From an uncultured delta proteobacterium (lineage in GTDB: Bacteria; Desulfobacterota; Binatia; DP-6), in NCBI GenBank assembly GCA_963815115.1, contig CAWFFN010000007.1, positions 224,001-288,000 on the forward strand: a stretch of 64,000 nt of DNA, in the 5' to 3' direction. The notes under the pieces were generated by a model that saw only the letters and a list, made by a program, of their open reading frames with translations, had not been told where the DNA came from and made no database searches. The translations under genes and the position numbers were made by a program. Positions within the stretch are counted from its first letter, which is position 1. Each line of letters begins with the position of its first letter. Shown in pieces: positions 44,649 through 51,554 of this stretch.

Positions 44649-44800
44649 GAGCGGCGGGAGCGTACCCTCTCCCTTCCTTCACCGTACCTTCATGGACAAG
44701 ACGCTATCAGTATGTTCCCTTCCTGCCGGTGGTAGCGAGGTCCGGCGGGGAAGGCACTCTGAAGAATGAGCCAAGCGTCTGCCGTTCGGCGGGAGCGCCG

Positions 44801-47164
44801 GTGACCGGGGCCGCTCCGCCGAAGGCCGCCGAGCTCCTGAGCGTCGTGGTCCCGGCGTACGACGAGGCGCCGAACCTGGAGCGGCTCGTGTCCGAGGTCC
44901 GCGATGCGCTCGACGCGGCCGGTGTCGCCTGGGAGCTGATCGTGGTCGACGACGGCAGCAGCGACGAGACGCCCGCCGTCCTGGATGCGCTCGCCGCGGC
45001 GGAGCCTCGCCTCCGCCCCCTCCGCCACGCGACGCGACGCGGGCAGACCGCGGCCATCGCGACCGGTTTCGGCGCAGCACGCGGCGAGCTGATCGCCACC
45101 CTCGACGCCGACCTGCAGTGTCGCCCGGAAGAGCTGCCGCGTCTGCTCGCGGCGCTGGGCGATGCCGACGCCGTCTGCGGGGTGCGCATCGGGCGACAGG
45201 ACCCCGGGTCGCGCCGCCTGGCGTCCATGCTGGCGAATGGCGCCCGGCGCATGCTCCTCGCGCCGGGCCTGCGCGATCTGGCGTGTCCCGCGCGCGTGAT
45301 GCGGGCGAGTGCGCTGGCGCGGCTCGCCGACGTGACGCCGCTCTTCGACGGCGCCCACCGCTGGCTGCCTGCGCTCTTCGCGCTGGCGGGGCTTCGTGTC
45401 GTACAGGTCCCGCTTCGCCACTGGCCCCGCCACGCGGGCGTTTCGAAGTACACCACGCGCGGGCGGCTCGGCCCGATCGCGCGCGAGACCGTTCGCGTGG
45501 CCCGGCTCACGTTTCGACGCTCCTGGCGGCAGCGTACGTTCTTCGCCGCAATCGTGCTCGTGCTCGTCGCCACGCCGTACTTTTACGCGCTCGGGCGTTG
45601 GCCGCTCATCGAGCCGGACGAGGGCCGCAATGCCGAGGTGGCGCGCGAGATGCTCGAGCTCGGGCGCTGGAGCGTGCCCCACTTCAACCAGATCCCGTAC
45701 CTCGACAAGCCCACGATGCTCTTCTGGCTCATCGCGGGCTCGTACAAGGTCGTGGGCGTGAACGAGTTCGCCGCCCGCTTGCCGGCGGCAATGAGCGCCG
45801 TCGCGACCGTCGGACTCACCTGGGCGCTCGCGCGGCGGCTCGTGGGAGGCCCGCGAGCGCTACTCGCCGCAGCCATCGTGGCGACGGCGCCGCTCGTCCT
45901 GATCTTCGCGCGCCTGGCGATCTTCGACATGCCGTTCACGGCCTTCGTCACCCTCGCGCTCTGGTGCCTGGTGCGCGCTCGCCTGGACGGTGGAGCAGGG
46001 TGGCTGGTCCCGCTGGCCGGCCTGGCCATGGCCGCCGCGACGCTCACCAAGGGGCCGGTCGGCGTCGCGCTTCCGCTGCTCTCCTGGCTGGCCGGTCGCG
46101 GAGCGCTGCCCGCGCCGCGGGAGCGCACCCCTCGGCGCGCGTTGCTCCTCGCCGGTCTCCTGTTCGTGGCGGCGGTCGGATCCTGGATCGCCATGGTCCA
46201 GCGCTACGAGCCCGGCTTCCTTCACTACGCCCTGGTCGACGAGACCTTCCTGCGCTTCACGTCGGTCGATCGCTTCCGTCGGGGTGGCGCGCCGTACCTC
46301 TACCCGCTCACGCTGGTGTGGGCCCTTGCGCCCTGGAGCGTGTTGCTGGTCGGGGTAGCGCCCGAGCTCGGACGGTGCTGGCGCTTGCCGACGTCCGACG
46401 GGACGGCGCTGCGGTTCGCGACCCGGGTGGCGGGGACCATGATCGTCTTCTTCACCCTCTCCGCCTCGAAGCGGCCCCAGTACATCCTTCCCGCCCTGGT
46501 TCCGCTCGCGATCGTGTGCGCTGTCGGGATCGCCAGACGGCCGGAACGAGCCGCTGGCGCGCTGCGTGCCGGCGCGCTGGGCGCGGTGGTCGGCGGGAGC
46601 GCCCTGGTGGTTGGTGCCATGCACGGGCTGCACCTCGAAGGGGCGGAAGCCTCGGCGGCGTCGGCCTCCGTTCTCATGGCGGGTGGTCTCGTCCTCGTTG
46701 CATGGGGCGCGTTCACCGTCGCAATCCACCGGGTCGGCGCATGGCCGACCATCGCCTGCGCGACGCTCCTCTCGCCCGGAGCCGGGTTCGTCCTTCTCGG
46801 GGCGCTGGCTCCGTGGGTCGACGTGCGCTCTGCGCGCACCCTGGCGACGCTCGTGCCGCCGGGCGCGAATATCGTCGCGTTCCAGCAGTTCCGCACCAGC
46901 TTGCCGTTCTACCTGCGGCGCCCCGTCCCGCTGCTCAGCACGACGGCCGGCGAGCTCACCAGCAACTACATCTGCGCCAACCGGAGTCGCTTCGCCGGCG
47001 GTCCGAACCTGGCGCGCCCCCCCGCCCTCAGGACGATGCTTGCGAGCGGCGAGCCCCTCTACGTCGTCACGCGGCACTCCAAGCTCGACCAGGTCGCCGA
47101 GCTCTCGGGCGGCGCGCTGCGTCCCGTCGACGCGGATGCGCGCAGCGTGCTCCTGCGGCGCTAG
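44801..47164 (+). CDS. Fusion of GT2 (ArnC/DPM-like) and ArnT/PMT-type (GT-C) membrane glycosyltransferase
   Basis: VVPAYDE, VDDGS, DADLQ and GVSKY motifs, then EPDEGRNAE, YLDKP, LTKGPVG and SKRPQYILP; start uncertain. Confidence 0.88.
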   Translation: MTGAAPPKAAELLSVVVPAYDEAPNLERLVSEVRDALDAAGVAWELIVVDDGSSDETPAVLDALAAAEPRLRPLRHATRRGQTAAIATGFGAARGELIATLDADLQCRPEELPRLLAALGDADAVCGVRIGRQDPGSRRLASMLANGARRMLLAPGLRDLACPARVMRASALARLADVTPLFDGAHRWLPALFALAGLRVVQVPLRHWPRHAGVSKYTTRGRLGPIARETVRVARLTFRRSWRQRTFFAAIVLVLVATPYFYALGRWPLIEPDEGRNAEVAREMLELGRWSVPHFNQIPYLDKPTMLFWLIAGSYKVVGVNEFAARLPAAMSAVATVGLTWALARRLVGGPRALLAAAIVATAPLVLIFARLAIFDMPFTAFVTLALWCLVRARLDGGAGWLVPLAGLAMAAATLTKGPVGVALPLLSWLAGRGALPAPRERTPRRALLLAGLLFVAAVGSWIAMVQRYEPGFLHYALVDETFLRFTSVDRFRRGGAPYLYPLTLVWALAPWSVLLVGVAPELGRCWRLPTSDGTALRFATRVAGTMIVFFTLSASKRPQYILPALVPLAIVCAVGIARRPERAAGALRAGALGAVVGGSALVVGAMHGLHLEGAEASAASASVLMAGGLVLVAWGAFTVAIHRVGAWPTIACATLLSPGAGFVLLGALAPWVDVRSARTLATLVPPGANIVAFQQFRTSLPFYLRRPVPLLSTTAGELTSNYICANRSRFAGGPNLARPPALRTMLASGEPLYVVTRHSKLDQVAELSGGALRPVDADARSVLLRR

Positions 47165-47167
47165 GCC

Positions 47168-49015
47168 GTGTGCGGCATCTACGGAGTCGTCGGGCCGGCG
47201 AGCGACACGCTCGCCGGGGGAATGGGCGCCACGCTGGCGCATCGCGGACCGGACGGCGACGGGACGCGCACGGTGGGCGACGCCACGCTGGGATGCCGGC
47301 GCCTGGCGATCATCGACGTCGCAGGGGGTGCGCAGCCTCTCACCAACGAGACCGGCGACGTGGTCGCGGTCTGCAACGGTGAGATCTACAACCACGCCGC
47401 GCTCCGCGACCGCCTCACCGCGCGCGGCCATCGCTTCCGAACGCGCAGCGACGCCGAGGTGCTCCCGCACCTCTACGAGGAGCACGGACCGGACCTGGTG
47501 CACGAGCTCGAAGGGATGTTCGCGCTCGCCGTCTGGGACGTGCGCGCACGCCGGCTCGTGCTGGCCCGTGACCGTCTGGGAGAAAAGCCGCTCTACCATG
47601 CCGTCGCCGGCGACCATCTCCTCTTCGCCTCGGAGCCGAAGGCGCTCATCGCGACCGGCGCGGTGCGTGCCGAGCCGAACTGGTCGGCCCTCGGCTCATA
47701 TCTCTGCCAGGGCTACGTTCCGTGGCCGGCGAGCGCGTTCGCCGGCATCGAGAAGCTGCCGCCGGGCGGACGGCTGGTACGAGGCCCCGACGGCGCACGG
47801 GTGGATCGCTACTGGAACGCGCCGGCCTGGTGCGCCGCGCCGGCGCTCGACGTCGACCTGTCTTCGGCCGCCACGCAACTGCGAGCGGAGCTGACCCGCG
47901 CGGTACAGGCCGCGCTCATGAGCGACGTGCCGCTCGGTCTCTTCCTGTCGGGCGGCCTCGACTCGACGGCGATGGCCGCGCTCGCCCGGCCCAACCTCGA
48001 CGCGCTCGCCACGTTCTCCATCGGCTTCGACGTGCCCGGGTTCGACGAGCTCGACTACGCGGGCCAGGCGGCGCGCGCCTTCGCGACGCGGCACCGCACG
48101 CTGACCGTCACGCCGGCACTGCTGCTGGAGGGCGTCCATGCGCTGGCGCGCCAGCTCGACGAGCCGCTGGCCGATCCGGCCGTCGTTCCGACGTTTCTCC
48201 TCTCCCGGATGGCACGCGAGGACGTCAAGGTCGTGCTCGTGGGGGAGGGCGGCGACGAGCTCCTCGCCGGCTACCCGACGTACCTGGCAGCGAGGCTGGC
48301 GGCGCGCTACCGCCGCCTCCCGGCCGTGGCGCGCGGGTGGCTCGCGTCGGCGGCCCGATCGGCGGGCGCGTCCGCCGGCAACACCACGCTGCGCTATCTG
48401 GTGCGGCGCTTCATCGAGGAGGCGGATGCAGCGCCCGCCGCCCGCCACCGCGCCTGGACGGGCTGCATGTCGAACGCGCGGCTCGCCGCGATGGTCGCCC
48501 CCGGCAGCCCACTCACCATCCCGCCGGAGCCGGCGGCCGTGACCGCCCGCACGGAGCTCGACGGGCTGCTCGCGCTCGATCTCGAGGGCTACCTGCCCGA
48601 CGACCTGCTTGCCAAGATCGATCGCGCCGGCATGGCGGCATCGCTCGAGGCGCGCGCCCCCTTCGTGAACCATCGTTTCGTGGAGTTCGCCTGCCGGCTT
48701 CCGATCGGGCACAAGCTGCGCGGCCTGCAGACCAAGCGCGTCCTGCGCCGCGCCATGACCGGCCTCGTCCCGGCAGCGATCGTGCGCCGGACGAAGCGCG
48801 GTCTCACCGTTCCGCTCGCCACCTGGCTCGCCGGCCCGCTGCGCGAGTTCGCCACCGACACGCTCGGCCGCCTGGACAAGCGGCTGATCCGGGAAGACGC
48901 GGTGCGCGAGCTGCTCGGGGATCACGTCGCCCGCCGCCGGGACAACCGGCGCGAGCTCTGGGCATTGATCATGCTGCAGCTCTGGCTGGAGCACTTCGTG
49001 ACGCGCGGTCGCTGA
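47168..49015 (+). CDS. asnB: Asparagine synthase (glutamine-hydrolysing) family amidotransferase
   Basis: MCGI, HRGPD, NGEIYN, LSGGLDS, GEGGDE and SLEARAPF motifs. Confidence 0.92.
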   Translation: MCGIYGVVGPASDTLAGGMGATLAHRGPDGDGTRTVGDATLGCRRLAIIDVAGGAQPLTNETGDVVAVCNGEIYNHAALRDRLTARGHRFRTRSDAEVLPHLYEEHGPDLVHELEGMFALAVWDVRARRLVLARDRLGEKPLYHAVAGDHLLFASEPKALIATGAVRAEPNWSALGSYLCQGYVPWPASAFAGIEKLPPGGRLVRGPDGARVDRYWNAPAWCAAPALDVDLSSAATQLRAELTRAVQAALMSDVPLGLFLSGGLDSTAMAALARPNLDALATFSIGFDVPGFDELDYAGQAARAFATRHRTLTVTPALLLEGVHALARQLDEPLADPAVVPTFLLSRMAREDVKVVLVGEGGDELLAGYPTYLAARLAARYRRLPAVARGWLASAARSAGASAGNTTLRYLVRRFIEEADAAPAARHRAWTGCMSNARLAAMVAPGSPLTIPPEPAAVTARTELDGLLALDLEGYLPDDLLAKIDRAGMAASLEARAPFVNHRFVEFACRLPIGHKLRGLQTKRVLRRAMTGLVPAAIVRRTKRGLTVPLATWLAGPLREFATDTLGRLDKRLIREDAVRELLGDHVARRRDNRRELWALIMLQLWLEHFVTRGR

Positions 49016-49029
49016 AGCGCCCACCGCGC

Positions 49030-49770
49030 TCAGAGACTCTCGAGGATCGCGCGGCGCTTCGCATCGTATTCTGCTGGTGTGATCGTTCCGCCGGCGCGCA
49101 GCCGTTCAAGTGCTTGGAGCCTTTGCTCCACGGTCGCCGCAGCAGTTCCCGCTGGCGGGTTGTGACTCTCCGCGAACGCCTTCGCCGCAGGGCGTTCCGG
49201 CGGCGCGTTGCGCCGGTACTCCCCTGTGTAGACCATCCGGCTCACGAGCTTGGCCGTCCGTACCATCGCGTTCTCGACCGCACCCTCCTCGCTCCAGCCC
49301 TTGTTGGCGCCACGGCTTTCGGTGAACTCACCCACCACGCTTCCGTCCGCTCGTCTCACTGTGCCGTATACGTCGAACTCCGAGTGGCCGGCCCCCATCC
49401 CGATGAGTATGCGCTTCGCTGTGCTACCGCCGTTGATCGCATCGATGCTGCCTGTGATGTTGAGCTGCCCAGTGAGGGGCGCACCCTCGGGGATCACCAC
49501 GGCTTGATAGCCAAGGCCCGATAGCTGCTCGGCGAGAACTTGAGCGTATCGCATGCCGATCGTTTGGAGGGAGCCCGAGTATCGCCGGACGACTGCATCA
49601 CTCGGCACCGCGAACTCCTGTACCGAAATACTCGCGCCACTCGGAGCGCCCGTTCGCGGCGTGGGGCAGCCGCACAGAGCGACGAGCAGCGTCAGGCTGA
49701 TCCAGTCCAGCCGCCCGAAGTTCTGGCTGGAGGCGTTACCGCTCGGGCCGTTCCAGCGGATGGTGGGCAT
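49030..49770 (-). CDS. DUF4410-like lipoprotein with C-terminal SHOCT domain
   Basis: Lipobox LCGC; 'GSTAKRILIGMGAG'; C-terminal 'LERLRAGGTITPAEYDAKRRAIL'. Confidence 0.72.
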   Translation of the reverse strand: MPTIRWNGPSGNASSQNFGRLDWISLTLLVALCGCPTPRTGAPSGASISVQEFAVPSDAVVRRYSGSLQTIGMRYAQVLAEQLSGLGYQAVVIPEGAPLTGQLNITGSIDAINGGSTAKRILIGMGAGHSEFDVYGTVRRADGSVVGEFTESRGANKGWSEEGAVENAMVRTAKLVSRMVYTGEYRRNAPPERPAAKAFAESHNPPAGTAAATVEQRLQALERLRAGGTITPAEYDAKRRAILESL

Positions 49771-50068
49771 CGTGGACCATGTACCAGGCTCTCTCGGCGC
49801 CTTACAAGCACATTCCGGGGCGGGCTAGATCGTTGCGCTGACGGTGTGGTGCTGTCCGGGGACACTACGCTCGCATGGACGTGGAAGCCGACTGGACGAT
49901 CCGACCTGCGAGGTTGGGGTTGCCGTGCGCCGCAGACGCCTGCGCCCGGGGGCGGACGCTGCGGACGCGTTGGGAGTGCAGCAGATGGGTTCCTGAACCC
50001 CGACCCGTCGCCTCACAGGAGGTTGCGAGCACCGACGTGGCCGTGTAACTCCGCGAGTTACTTACGTC

Positions 50069-50105
50069 GAGCCGTTAGCTCAGTCGGTAGAGCAGCTGCC
50101 TTTTA
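50069..50105 (+). tRNA. tRNA-Lys(TTT), 5' half (positions 1-37) of an interrupted gene
   Basis: GAGCCGTTAGCTCAGTCGGTAGAGCAGCTGCCTTTTA, followed by unrelated sequence. Confidence 0.9.
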
Positions 50106-50764
50106 CGGTGACCGCCAACACGTTGATCGGCGGTACGACAAGCACGACGAGTACGACGAGTACGACGACCACGCGACCCTGCACGAGCGCGGCCTGTACG
50201 ACGACCACGCTACCCTGCACGAGCGCGACCTGTACCTTGCGAGCTGCCCTCACTGGCGCCGCGTGCGTAGGTCAGCCCATTCCGGCAAGCGTCGCCGGTA
50301 AGCTCACGACGGCCGCGTATCTCATCGATAAGGCCACCATGGCTTCCGCCAAGAAGGCCCGCAAGCTCCGCCAGCGAGCGAAGCACCTCCTCAAGCGGGC
50401 GGGTGCGACGGCGACGCATGCCGCGAAGGGCAAGAAGGCGAAGCTGTCGGCCGCGTGCGCCACCGCCCTGAAGGACGCCGCGCGGGCAGTGTGGCCGCGC
50501 GGACCACTCGGAACACGGGCGCGCTGATCGCGCGGGCCGCTCCGAAGGCGAGGTCTCGTTTGGAACGTGCGACTACTCCCCCCGCTCGGCAGCGGGTCCA
50601 AGTGGTATGCCCTCGATTGGCTTGTACTCGGTGTGTACCGGGTGTGTACCGGAACGGGTCCCCATCCCTCGCCATCCCGGGCGTGGGCGAAGGACGAAAG
50701 GCTCGCCGTTTCGCGCCTGGGATGGTGTCGGATGGGCTGGTGCACAGCACGATGGCGCCTTTTA
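50098..50764. mobile_element. 659-bp insert (integrative-element remnant) bounded by the direct repeat GCCTTTTA
   Basis: Direct repeat at 50098-50105 and 50757-50764; tandem GGTGTGTACCG x2 at 50630-50651; no integrase gene. Confidence 0.7.
50102..50527 (+). pseudogene. 3' fragment of a secreted-protein gene (Thr linker plus Cys/Lys/Ala-rich C-terminal domain)
   Basis: FTVTANT...TTSTTSTTSTTTT...CTSAAC...ACVGQPIP...AAKGKKAKLSAAC; no signal peptide or RBS. Confidence 0.6.
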
Positions 50765-50800
50765 AGCAGCGGGTCACTGGTTCGATCCCAGTACGGCTCA
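50757..50800 (+). tRNA. tRNA-Lys(TTT), 3' half (positions 30-73)
   Basis: GCCTTTTAAGCAGCGGGTCACTGGTTCGATCCCAGTACGGCTCA; pairs perfectly with the 5' half. Confidence 0.9.
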
Positions 50801-51003
50801 CTCGTTTCCGCCGGCGGTTCAGGGGCTTGGCGGCCCAACGCCGCAGCAGCCTTCTCTGGTAGCCGCTCGGTGCTACCTGTGGTTGCTACTCGATCGCGTG
50901 CGACGCGTTGCGCGGCGTCGAGCTTGTGGGCGGCGCAGCGCAACGAAGGCCGACGCAGCGGCGCTCGCCACGAGCGCGAAGGGCGGCCGGCTCACGAGGC
51001 TGT

Positions 51004-51471
51004 TCACCGCGAAGCCGGCGCGCGCTTCGAATTGAGTTCCTTCCAGCGCCGGATCATGTCGTGCCCTTCGGCGCGTCTCTTCTCGAGGTGCTCGTACCAC
51101 GGCTCGTCGAACTGGGTGAATTCGACCACGTTGCTGTCGGGGTCGCGGATCGCGGTGATCGTCATCGGCCCCATCTTCCGCGGCGGATAGAGGAGCTGCA
51201 CCCCGTGCGCCGCGAGCCTCTTCACGTGAACCTCCATATCGAACACCTCGAACGCGAGCTTCACGGAGCCCACGCCGCAGCCTTCCCCCGCGAAGTTCTC
51301 GACGGGGTGGATCGCGAAGTGGAGGTCGCCGAGTTCGCAGCCATAGTGCTTGAGCGACGGCCCGTGCTCCTCCTCCTCGAGCGGCACGCCGATCACGTCG
51401 CGGTAGAAGGCCGCCAGGCGATCGTGGTTGGGGGAAGCAAGTAGCACGGCGCCGAGGAACTCTACCTTCAT
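51004..51471 (-). CDS. VOC/glyoxalase family protein
   Basis: 'LAAFYRDVIG', 'LAFEVFD' and 'IRDPDSNVVE' motifs; GGAGG RBS. Confidence 0.85.
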   Translation of the reverse strand: MKVEFLGAVLLASPNHDRLAAFYRDVIGVPLEEEEHGPSLKHYGCELGDLHFAIHPVENFAGEGCGVGSVKLAFEVFDMEVHVKRLAAHGVQLLYPPRKMGPMTITAIRDPDSNVVEFTQFDEPWYEHLEKRRAEGHDMIRRWKELNSKRAPASR

Positions 51472-51554
51472 GAAGACCTCCAAGCGGCCAGCATGGCCGG
51501 CGACTGGTGATGGACGAGCCTCGGAAGGGTGTCGCTGACGAGTCGAGTCGTGCG

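Follow-up and report, generated by a model that had tools for sequence, protein, structure and literature searches.

How does a bacterium read AAA codons when its only tRNA-Lys(UUU) gene is cut in two within the anticodon loop, and what is the DNA that separates the two parts? The insert could be an intron, or an element excised from the DNA, so that the gene works in spite of it, or it could be what recombination has left behind in a broken gene. The reading that fits the results best is the last of these, namely a DNA-level recombination scar in the organism's only tRNA-Lys(UUU) gene, the remnant of an island that has lost the regenerated half of the tRNA gene and not an intron. We give this reading a probability of about one half. 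The genome is that of a soil bacterium, assembled as 12 contigs totalling 6.89 Mb with 70% GC and listed as 100% complete with 3% contamination. The window is the whole stretch of DNA analysed, 64,000 nt of contig C7, and coordinates given without a contig are those of the window, with all features on the forward strand.

Layout of the split gene

Reading of the sequence places the tRNA-Lys(UUU) gene in two parts, 50069-50105 and 50757-50800, with the cut in the anticodon loop. The 5' half (50069-50105, tRNA positions 1-37) contains the first acceptor strand, the D arm, the 5' strand of the anticodon stem and the loop as far as A37. Its last eight bases (50098-50105, tRNA positions 30-37) are GCCTTTTA, and a second copy of this repeat (repeat family D13) at 50757-50764 opens the 3' part. 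With the junction placed as far to the right as possible, the 3' half is 50765-50800, tRNA positions 38-73, comprising the 3' strand of the anticodon stem, the variable loop, the T arm, the second acceptor strand and the discriminator A at 50800, which is the end of the gene; CCA is not encoded. There are 651 bases between the junctions (50106-50756), and the distance from repeat start to repeat start is 659 bp. Since the 8-mer GCCTTTTA occurs only seven times on both strands of the 6.89-Mb genome, two of the seven being the junction copies, and the second copy is 659 bp away, the presence of the repeat at both junctions is not due to chance.

Upstream of the 5' half a promoter-like block, TTGCGA followed by a 17-nt spacer and TG-TAACTC, may be recognised at 50023-50051. 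The block TTGC...TGTAACTCCGCG also stands upstream of the intact tRNA-Lys genes of the relatives G002 and G018. In a consensus scan no promoter passed the thresholds here.

Plain ARAGORN called no tRNA at the locus and the Rfam tRNA match was weak, 16.4 bits over 50734-50800. With its intron option, ARAGORN rebuilt a tRNA-Lys(ttt) with a 659-nt insert. This option is permissive in a genome of 70% GC, giving 227 calls genome-wide compared to 60 without it, and the rebuilt tRNA is therefore weak evidence when taken alone, so that the decisive proof is the comparison with relatives. ARAGORN at the 80% threshold was useless, with 20522 calls. As assembled, the locus is unable to yield a tRNA, and the gene can be restored only by a precise deletion between the 8-bp repeats.

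The locus in related genomes

A query of 1101 nt found matches in 39 of the 41 genomes searched, the organism's own included. Of the 11 loci of relatives that were fetched, 10 have the two halves together, with an overlap of exactly 8 bp, the eleventh (L011) having matched only a paralogue of the insert. The 5' half is 100% identical to the intact genes of G001, which belongs to the same genus, and of G012 and G005, while the 3' part is 100% identical in G001, G012 and G018. ARAGORN confirmed an uninterrupted tRNA-Lys gene in G001, G002, G005, G006, G009, G010 and G018. Together with the ARAGORN rebuild, these intact genes bear out the earlier sequence-only reading, which had described a split tRNA-Lys(TTT) that becomes flawless on removal of 659 bp and had pointed to the same locus in relatives as a check; the gene is uninterrupted in those 10 loci. 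The insert is absent from all 40 relatives searched and is lineage-specific.

The flanks of the gene vary within the genus. The conserved block stops at 44649, and in G003, of the same genus, the tRNA lies 210 bp beyond it. Here 5.4 kb of extra genes (44650-50068) stand between the conserved block and the tRNA and encode a GT2-PMT fusion glycosyltransferase, an asparagine synthase and a DUF4410-SHOCT protein. None of the three same-genus genomes compared has these genes here, each carrying different ones instead. Synteny with G002 returns 21 kb downstream.

The tRNA set and the decoding of AAA

Infernal found 45 tRNAs in the genome and all were also called by ARAGORN. The other split boxes are complete (Glu UUC/CUC, Gln UUG/CUG, Arg UCU/CCU and Leu UAA/CAA), and Lys UUU is the one anticodon missing from a full bacterial set. 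A search for another Lys-TTT gene with ARAGORN and Infernal found none in the assembly and none inside the insert, the sole other Lys tRNA being CUU (gene anticodon CTT) at C8:393055-393127. By established decoding rules a tRNA with C34 reads AAG only. AAA occurs 1159 times in the 3131 confident ORFs of high GC3, making up 4.5% of their Lys codons, and is present in 856 of these ORFs. The earlier claim that tRNA-Lys(UUU) is normally needed is thus upheld by the lack of a second copy and by the 856 ORFs with AAA. Disruption of the single tRNA-Lys-TTT gene of Mycobacterium smegmatis without complementation gave no transformants and the gene is essential there, according to PMC10865867.

As to the puzzle of how AAA is read by cells with this allele, the allele is most likely a recent or a minority variant among the mixed strains from which the assembly was made, or else a complementing tRNA-Lys(UUU) may be present on unassembled or unbinned DNA.

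Proposed removal of the insert from RNA or DNA

The puzzle would disappear if the interrupted gene were functional, the 659 nt being removed either from the DNA by a tyrosine recombinase acting in trans or from the RNA by an undescribed cut-and-ligate process, for example one using RtcB. If this were true, then AAA translation would be gated by an excision or an RNA-processing step. In favour are the sole tRNA-Lys(UUU) gene of a 100%-complete genome with AAA in so many ORFs, the undecayed state of both halves and the promoter-like block upstream. The genome encodes RtcB and has 18 matches to the tyrosine integrase family PF00589, although none of the 18 lies in C7:224001-288000, as the earlier statement that no integrase is present would require. 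Furthermore, in the MFE fold the arms of the cloverleaf stay paired while the insert projects out of the anticodon loop, as would also be in keeping with a functional gene.

Nine placements of the junction are possible and these give, as the last letters of the exon and of the insert, T/C, G/G, C/C, C/C, T/T (four times) and A/A. None of the nine joins a 5' exon ending in U to an insert ending in G, so the ends of a group I intron are not found and the junction logic of the sequence-only reading holds. The group II start GUGYG is likewise found in none of the nine placements. Rfam cmscan of 49500-51500 at E<=10 returned no group I or group II intron family, its four weak matches being to other families. 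No bulge-helix-bulge is formed at the junctions in the MFE fold, the insert end repeating the loop and not being complementary to it. The search for the splicing endonuclease EndA (PF01974) gave 0 matches in the 100%-complete genome, while the control search found four archaea.

Two apparent signs of an intron were rejected. The z-score of the RNA fold, -2.9 from 20 shuffles, which might have indicated a structured intron, is at least partly due to pairing of the tRNA halves with each other. The second was a 172-nt contig, X5, from an RNA run, with a joint skipping the 659 nt as a spliced product would. However, 94 letters upstream of the tRNA in X5 differ from the genome studied here and match G001 and, because they match the upstream region of G001, X5 represents an intact gene from a different organism. 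The one RNA contig that looked 'spliced' thus counts against a functional gene.

Removal at the RNA level, as had been proposed, is not supported given the lack of a group I or II match, of a bulge-helix-bulge and of EndA, and given that the insert is coding debris, a gene fragment (see below), which is not conserved at the site in any relative. Nothing was found in support of the other proposal, excision by a recombinase in trans. Close homologues of the tRNA-Lys integrases of relatives are missing from the genome, the best match being 32% identical. This best match is a tyrosine integrase directly beside the tRNA cluster Lys(CTT)-His-Arg(TCT)-Pro(TGG), in the region C8:391898-393438. As for the undecayed halves, these would be expected anyway after a recent event. 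A functional interrupted gene, by whichever route, is therefore held to be very improbable.

Content of the insert

The insert (50106-50756) is present in a single copy, BLASTN against the genome giving a full-length match to itself alone. From 50108 to 50527 it holds the tail of a 5'-truncated gene, which ends in a stop codon at 50525-50527 and encodes a linker rich in Thr followed by a C-terminal domain of ~90 aa rich in Cys and Lys; the third-position GC signal agrees with this frame. The tail matched no Pfam family, but contig C4 encodes a 420-aa protein whose C-terminus shares 58% identity with it over 88 aa (E 3e-24) and whose N-terminus, from reading the printed sequence, looks like a signal peptide.

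This C-terminal module forms a family with several copies per genome, having a poly-Thr linker, a PCT..C motif and a Lys-rich region of ~90 aa (KKARKL...AAKGKK...C). It is joined to different secreted-looking proteins and is also found in the soil metagenome contigs L038-L040. Five paralogous C-termini (42-51%) are located at C4:31554-31916, C9:613628-613987, C5:1123534-1123923, C9:1369312-1369689 and C7:880261-880629. One paralogue of the gene tail lies 2.6 kb from an integrase at C9:613-617 kb, with no evident link between the two.

Soil metagenome contig L038 is 89.6% identical in DNA to 50198-50527, and the intergenic DNA natively 3' of the gene tail (50528-50669) has 133 of 141 aligned bases (94%) the same as L038. 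Past 50669 the similarity is at the random level, 37 of 87 bases, and so ends 87 bp short of the repeat. Because the match to L038 spans 50198-50669 and then drops to random, the insert is the tail of a 5'-truncated gene for a secreted protein, the native spacer of that gene and an 87-bp arm of separate origin. The arm (50670-50756) abuts the right repeat and has no homologue in L038, in the relatives or in the rest of the genome; it may be read as the element-side arm of an attR-like junction. There is no tRNA on L038 and the remainder of that contig is essentially without counterpart in the genome, the sole other match being 65 nt on C8.

The intergenic spacer contains a tandem TGTACCGG motif at 50630-50653. 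Within 50580-50669 this tandem is followed by GGAAC...CCATCCC, and the stretch, although non-coding, is at 94% better kept relative to L038 than the adjacent coding DNA. This conserved TGTACCGG stretch might act in regulation or as a promoter, and a 43-nt sequence resembling the motif is found in a second intergenic region, C8:380838-380878. Overlapping the end of the spacer is an imperfect hairpin (50661-50736, inverted pair I3) with 23-nt arms that are 83% complementary. No T run follows this hairpin and no terminator was called there.

The insert ORF, searched for by protein pattern, gave three confirmed relatives in metagenome contigs and none in genome contigs or viral contigs. Exact 27- and 28-mers from the insert ends gave 0 matches in metagenome contigs and 0 in genome contigs, and neither the conserved spacer as a 34-mer nor the 3' half as a 42-mer gave any match in viral contigs. 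A decayed 3' half inside the insert, suggested by a 10-nt copy of GCAGCGGGTC at 50589-50598, was rejected as 28 of 500 shuffles scored equally well.

The 8-bp direct repeat is of the kind made by target-site duplication of an insertion sequence or MITE. Other features of such elements were absent: 0 of 23 inverted pairs join the insert ends, the insert is in single copy and its sole ORF is the tail of a structural gene, not a transposase.

The content of the insert bears on the main rival explanation, illegitimate recombination without an integrase. According to this, the tRNA gene suffered a break that was filled by copying or capturing part of a foreign gene locus, or of one since lost, the outcome being the same dead allele. 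It could have happened by a microhomology template switch that returned via GCCTTTTA, or by end-joining capture at a staggered break, giving the 8-bp duplication. An insert that consists of plain DNA of chromosomal type and has a truncated gene on its left side is as expected for such an event, as is the combination of one genome copy, no terminal inverted repeats and no transposase. The closest relative of the insert, L038, also sits in a context without a tRNA and no integrase is nearby. Against this, the donor is absent from the genome, which means that the template would necessarily have been transient DNA, and the last 87 bp are foreign to the donor-like locus. The position of the break, examined next, also counts against it.

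The anticodon loop as an integrase site

Two relatives, G018 and G006, have at this tRNA gene a 5' half with CTTTTAAG, an island of 10-12 kb, a tyrosine integrase (PF00589) and an intact tRNA, in that order. The integrase gene ends just before the intact tRNA in both and the two integrases are 68% identical. These islands at tRNA-Lys(UUU) are prophage-like, L013 (G018:C7, 811-12776) and L014 (G006:C9, 1209-11549), and a phage terminase (gpA) gene is also present in the G018 island. Both islands are in the rarer orientation, in which it is the 5' half that is replaced, and the original one, displaced, lies upstream. On the IMG/VR contig L041 (4818-6849) a tyrosine-integrase ORF ends beside an attP with an exact 38-nt 5' half plus CTTTTAAGCAG, and this attP is flanked on both sides by GGTGGAAG(AACGGTGGAAG) repeats resembling arm-type sites. 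L041 appears, from its sequence, to come from a phage whose integration replaces the target tRNA's 5' half. Two further relatives, G009 and G010, contain extra 3' halves starting at CTTTTAAGCAG, 3 and 7 kb downstream of the intact gene; no integrase was found near these extra halves in the ORFs scanned, which were one of two candidates in G009 and three of eight in G010.

The repeat GCCTTTTA overlaps the CTTTTAAG common to the att junctions of G018, G006, G009, G010 and L041, as a crossover segment should. Since the att junctions of the relatives and of L041 fall there, strand exchange takes place in the anticodon loop, in the CTTTTAA segment, as duplicated here. The cut in the gene lies within CTTTTAA, the segment used for recombination by the tyrosine-integrase elements of this bacterial family, and this supports a scar left by such an element, whereas a break exactly in the crossover segment of integrases is not what recombination without one would predict. 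The right junction is like those of G009 and G010, in that identity to the tRNA begins at the loop and GATGG is found at -28 to -24 from CTTTTAAG in all three, though this motif was picked post hoc and at 0.0015 per nt genome-wide is expected ~0.12 times per 80 nt. The positioned GATGG, in common with other att junctions, is a further point against the integrase-free routes. The left junction cuts into coding sequence, which again supports a scar.

Several things that an element might have left were not found. The insert has no similarity to the G018 and G006 islands or to the viral contig L041, none of the nine flanking ORFs scanned matches PF00589 and the genome contains no regenerated tRNA nor any further copy of either half, only the two complementary halves. 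On balance, illegitimate recombination without an integrase is considered unlikely, though it is the rival to be taken most seriously.

Assembly, strains and public reads

Parts of the small contigs C2, C3, C4, C6 and C10 are 98.5-99.2% identical to stretches of large contigs and so are haplotigs, which indicates that at least two strains, about 1% apart, were co-assembled. A repeat of 1.48 kb, of 99.8-100% identity and like an insertion sequence, is found twice on C5 and also on C2 and C4.

Given this mixture of strains, the split gene could be an assembly error, as was also proposed from the sequence alone, or a rare structural variant, with the living cells having an intact tRNA-Lys(UUU). 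This would remove the difficulty that otherwise an essential tRNA is missing. In G003 the tRNA-Lys(UUU) halves are at the ends of two contigs (L017 and L018; G003:C2:1-38 and G003:C20:1-35), broken inside the anticodon loop and with no other copy, and an 18-kb contig, G003:C23 (L031), a 99.9% haplotig of another contig, ends ~4 nt past the anticodon loop of tRNA-Leu(TAA). Because of these contig ends at tRNA-Lys and tRNA-Leu(TAA), assemblies in this genus seem to break at tRNA anticodon loops, which is in favour of an artefact or variant. The breaks in G003 are perhaps due to island polymorphism and, taken with the sequences compared here, suggest that populations of this genus commonly vary at the anticodon loops of their tRNA genes. 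Other candidate junctions in G003 were rejected: a second GTAGAGCAGCTGCC, on contig C12, is a chance match within coding-looking DNA, and 0 of 4 GCCTTTTA sites are junctions, two being the same locus on a haplotig.

Several observations speak against an error. The split locus is inside a contig of 1.24 Mb, assemblers need much more than an 8-bp overlap to make a join and the junctions are clean, one of them being att-like. Public reads were sought in 17 runs, the best of which contained 0.24 of the sampled words, and four runs were examined at a depth of 2-3. No public contig bridges either junction, but gaps at such depth prove nothing. Contigs X1 and X2 are exact over the flanks and not the insert, while X3 (208 nt) is exact over 50290-50497 and not the flanks. 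An exact public match to the insert is a point against an artefact, though X3 may come from a donor locus. Overall, an assembly error or a rare variant of mixed strains is judged distinctly unlikely.

A probable recombination scar

Returning to the scar of an island, to which we give roughly an even chance, the events may have been as follows. An integrative element would once have been inserted here, with the tRNA regenerated at the left end of the element and the displaced original 3' half at its right end, where 50670-50800 would be attR. Later, a deletion would have taken place with one end at position 37/38 of the regenerated tRNA and the other in a cargo gene close to the right end, either by an integrase cut at the core being joined to a secondary site or by an ordinary illegitimate deletion. 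This would have taken away the integrase and the regenerated 3' half together with most of the island. What remained would be 5' half, core, 651 bp, core and 3' half, i.e. an attL-like stump and a genuine attR.

Such an aberrant island deletion was among the proposals made from the sequence alone and, of these, it fits best as regards the site of crossover, the right junction like those of G009 and G010 and the left junction in coding sequence. The absence at the locus of any integrase, island remnant or regenerated half that would prove a former element counts against the scar. So do the lack of similarity between the insert and the islands of G018 and G006 or the viral contig, the post hoc choice of GATGG, the extra 3' halves of G009 and G010 with no integrase among the ORFs scanned there and the lack of a public contig across either junction. 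In addition, a null allele of an essential gene should be lost fast, yet no other allele is present in an assembly that is 100% complete and has all the other anticodons expected.

Should the reading as a scar be correct, the locus is an ordinary by-product of the traffic of mobile elements at a tRNA hotspot and its main value is cautionary. A split tRNA that can be rebuilt perfectly, with a 37/38 junction, is not necessarily interrupted by an intron, even though intron-aware tRNA finders report one. The missing tRNA for AAA would reflect strain mixing in the bin or a hidden complementing element or, much less likely, a new means of rescuing a broken tRNA.

Comparison with known systems

Group I introns are found in the anticodon loops of bacterial tRNA genes, e.g. 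in tRNA-Leu UAA of cyanobacteria and tRNA-Ile of Azoarcus. The present insert shares this location within the anticodon loop of a bacterial tRNA gene. Unlike those introns, it has no U...G ends and no detected catalytic core, is not conserved in relatives and has coding debris inside.

The CIMEs of Streptococcus thermophilus are cis-mobilizable remnants of islands that keep functional att sites and an intact target. The locus resembles these in being a short remnant between attL-like and attR-like junctions without a recombinase of its own, but differs in that the left junction cuts coding sequence and the target tRNA is destroyed.

Islands that regenerate their target tRNA offer a closer parallel. 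A class of these with crossover in the anticodon loop was reportedly distinguished by Williams in 2002. To our knowledge, the standard form of such islands always leaves one intact tRNA, whereas here there is no intact copy and the element is down to 651 bp. The likeness is in the crossover in the anticodon loop and the displaced tRNA fragment at the end of an element, the standard form being found in G018, G006, G009, G010 and the viral contig. Integration of genomic islands and prophages in tRNA genes with the target regenerated is described in the paper on the Islander database (PMC4383910).

The closest described system is the tRNA-dependent lysogeny of actinobacteriophages, Fionnbharth and others (Guerrero-Bustamante & Hatfull 2024, PMC10865867). 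There, attL and attR bound a complete prophage with an integrase and a tRNA-Lys-TTT of its own, on which survival depends. Both cases involve the single tRNA-Lys-TTT gene of a high-GC host and a short core, about 10 bp there and 8 bp here, with no tRNA rebuilt at either junction. The difference is that here the junctions enclose only 651 bp of gene debris, with the integrase missing and a replacement tRNA found nowhere in the assembly. The locus, read as a scar, is thus a natural example from outside the actinobacteriophages of a single-copy tRNA-Lys(UUU) anticodon loop being hit without repair, and a hidden complementing element, if there is one, would place tRNA-dependent lysogeny in a new phylum-level setting.
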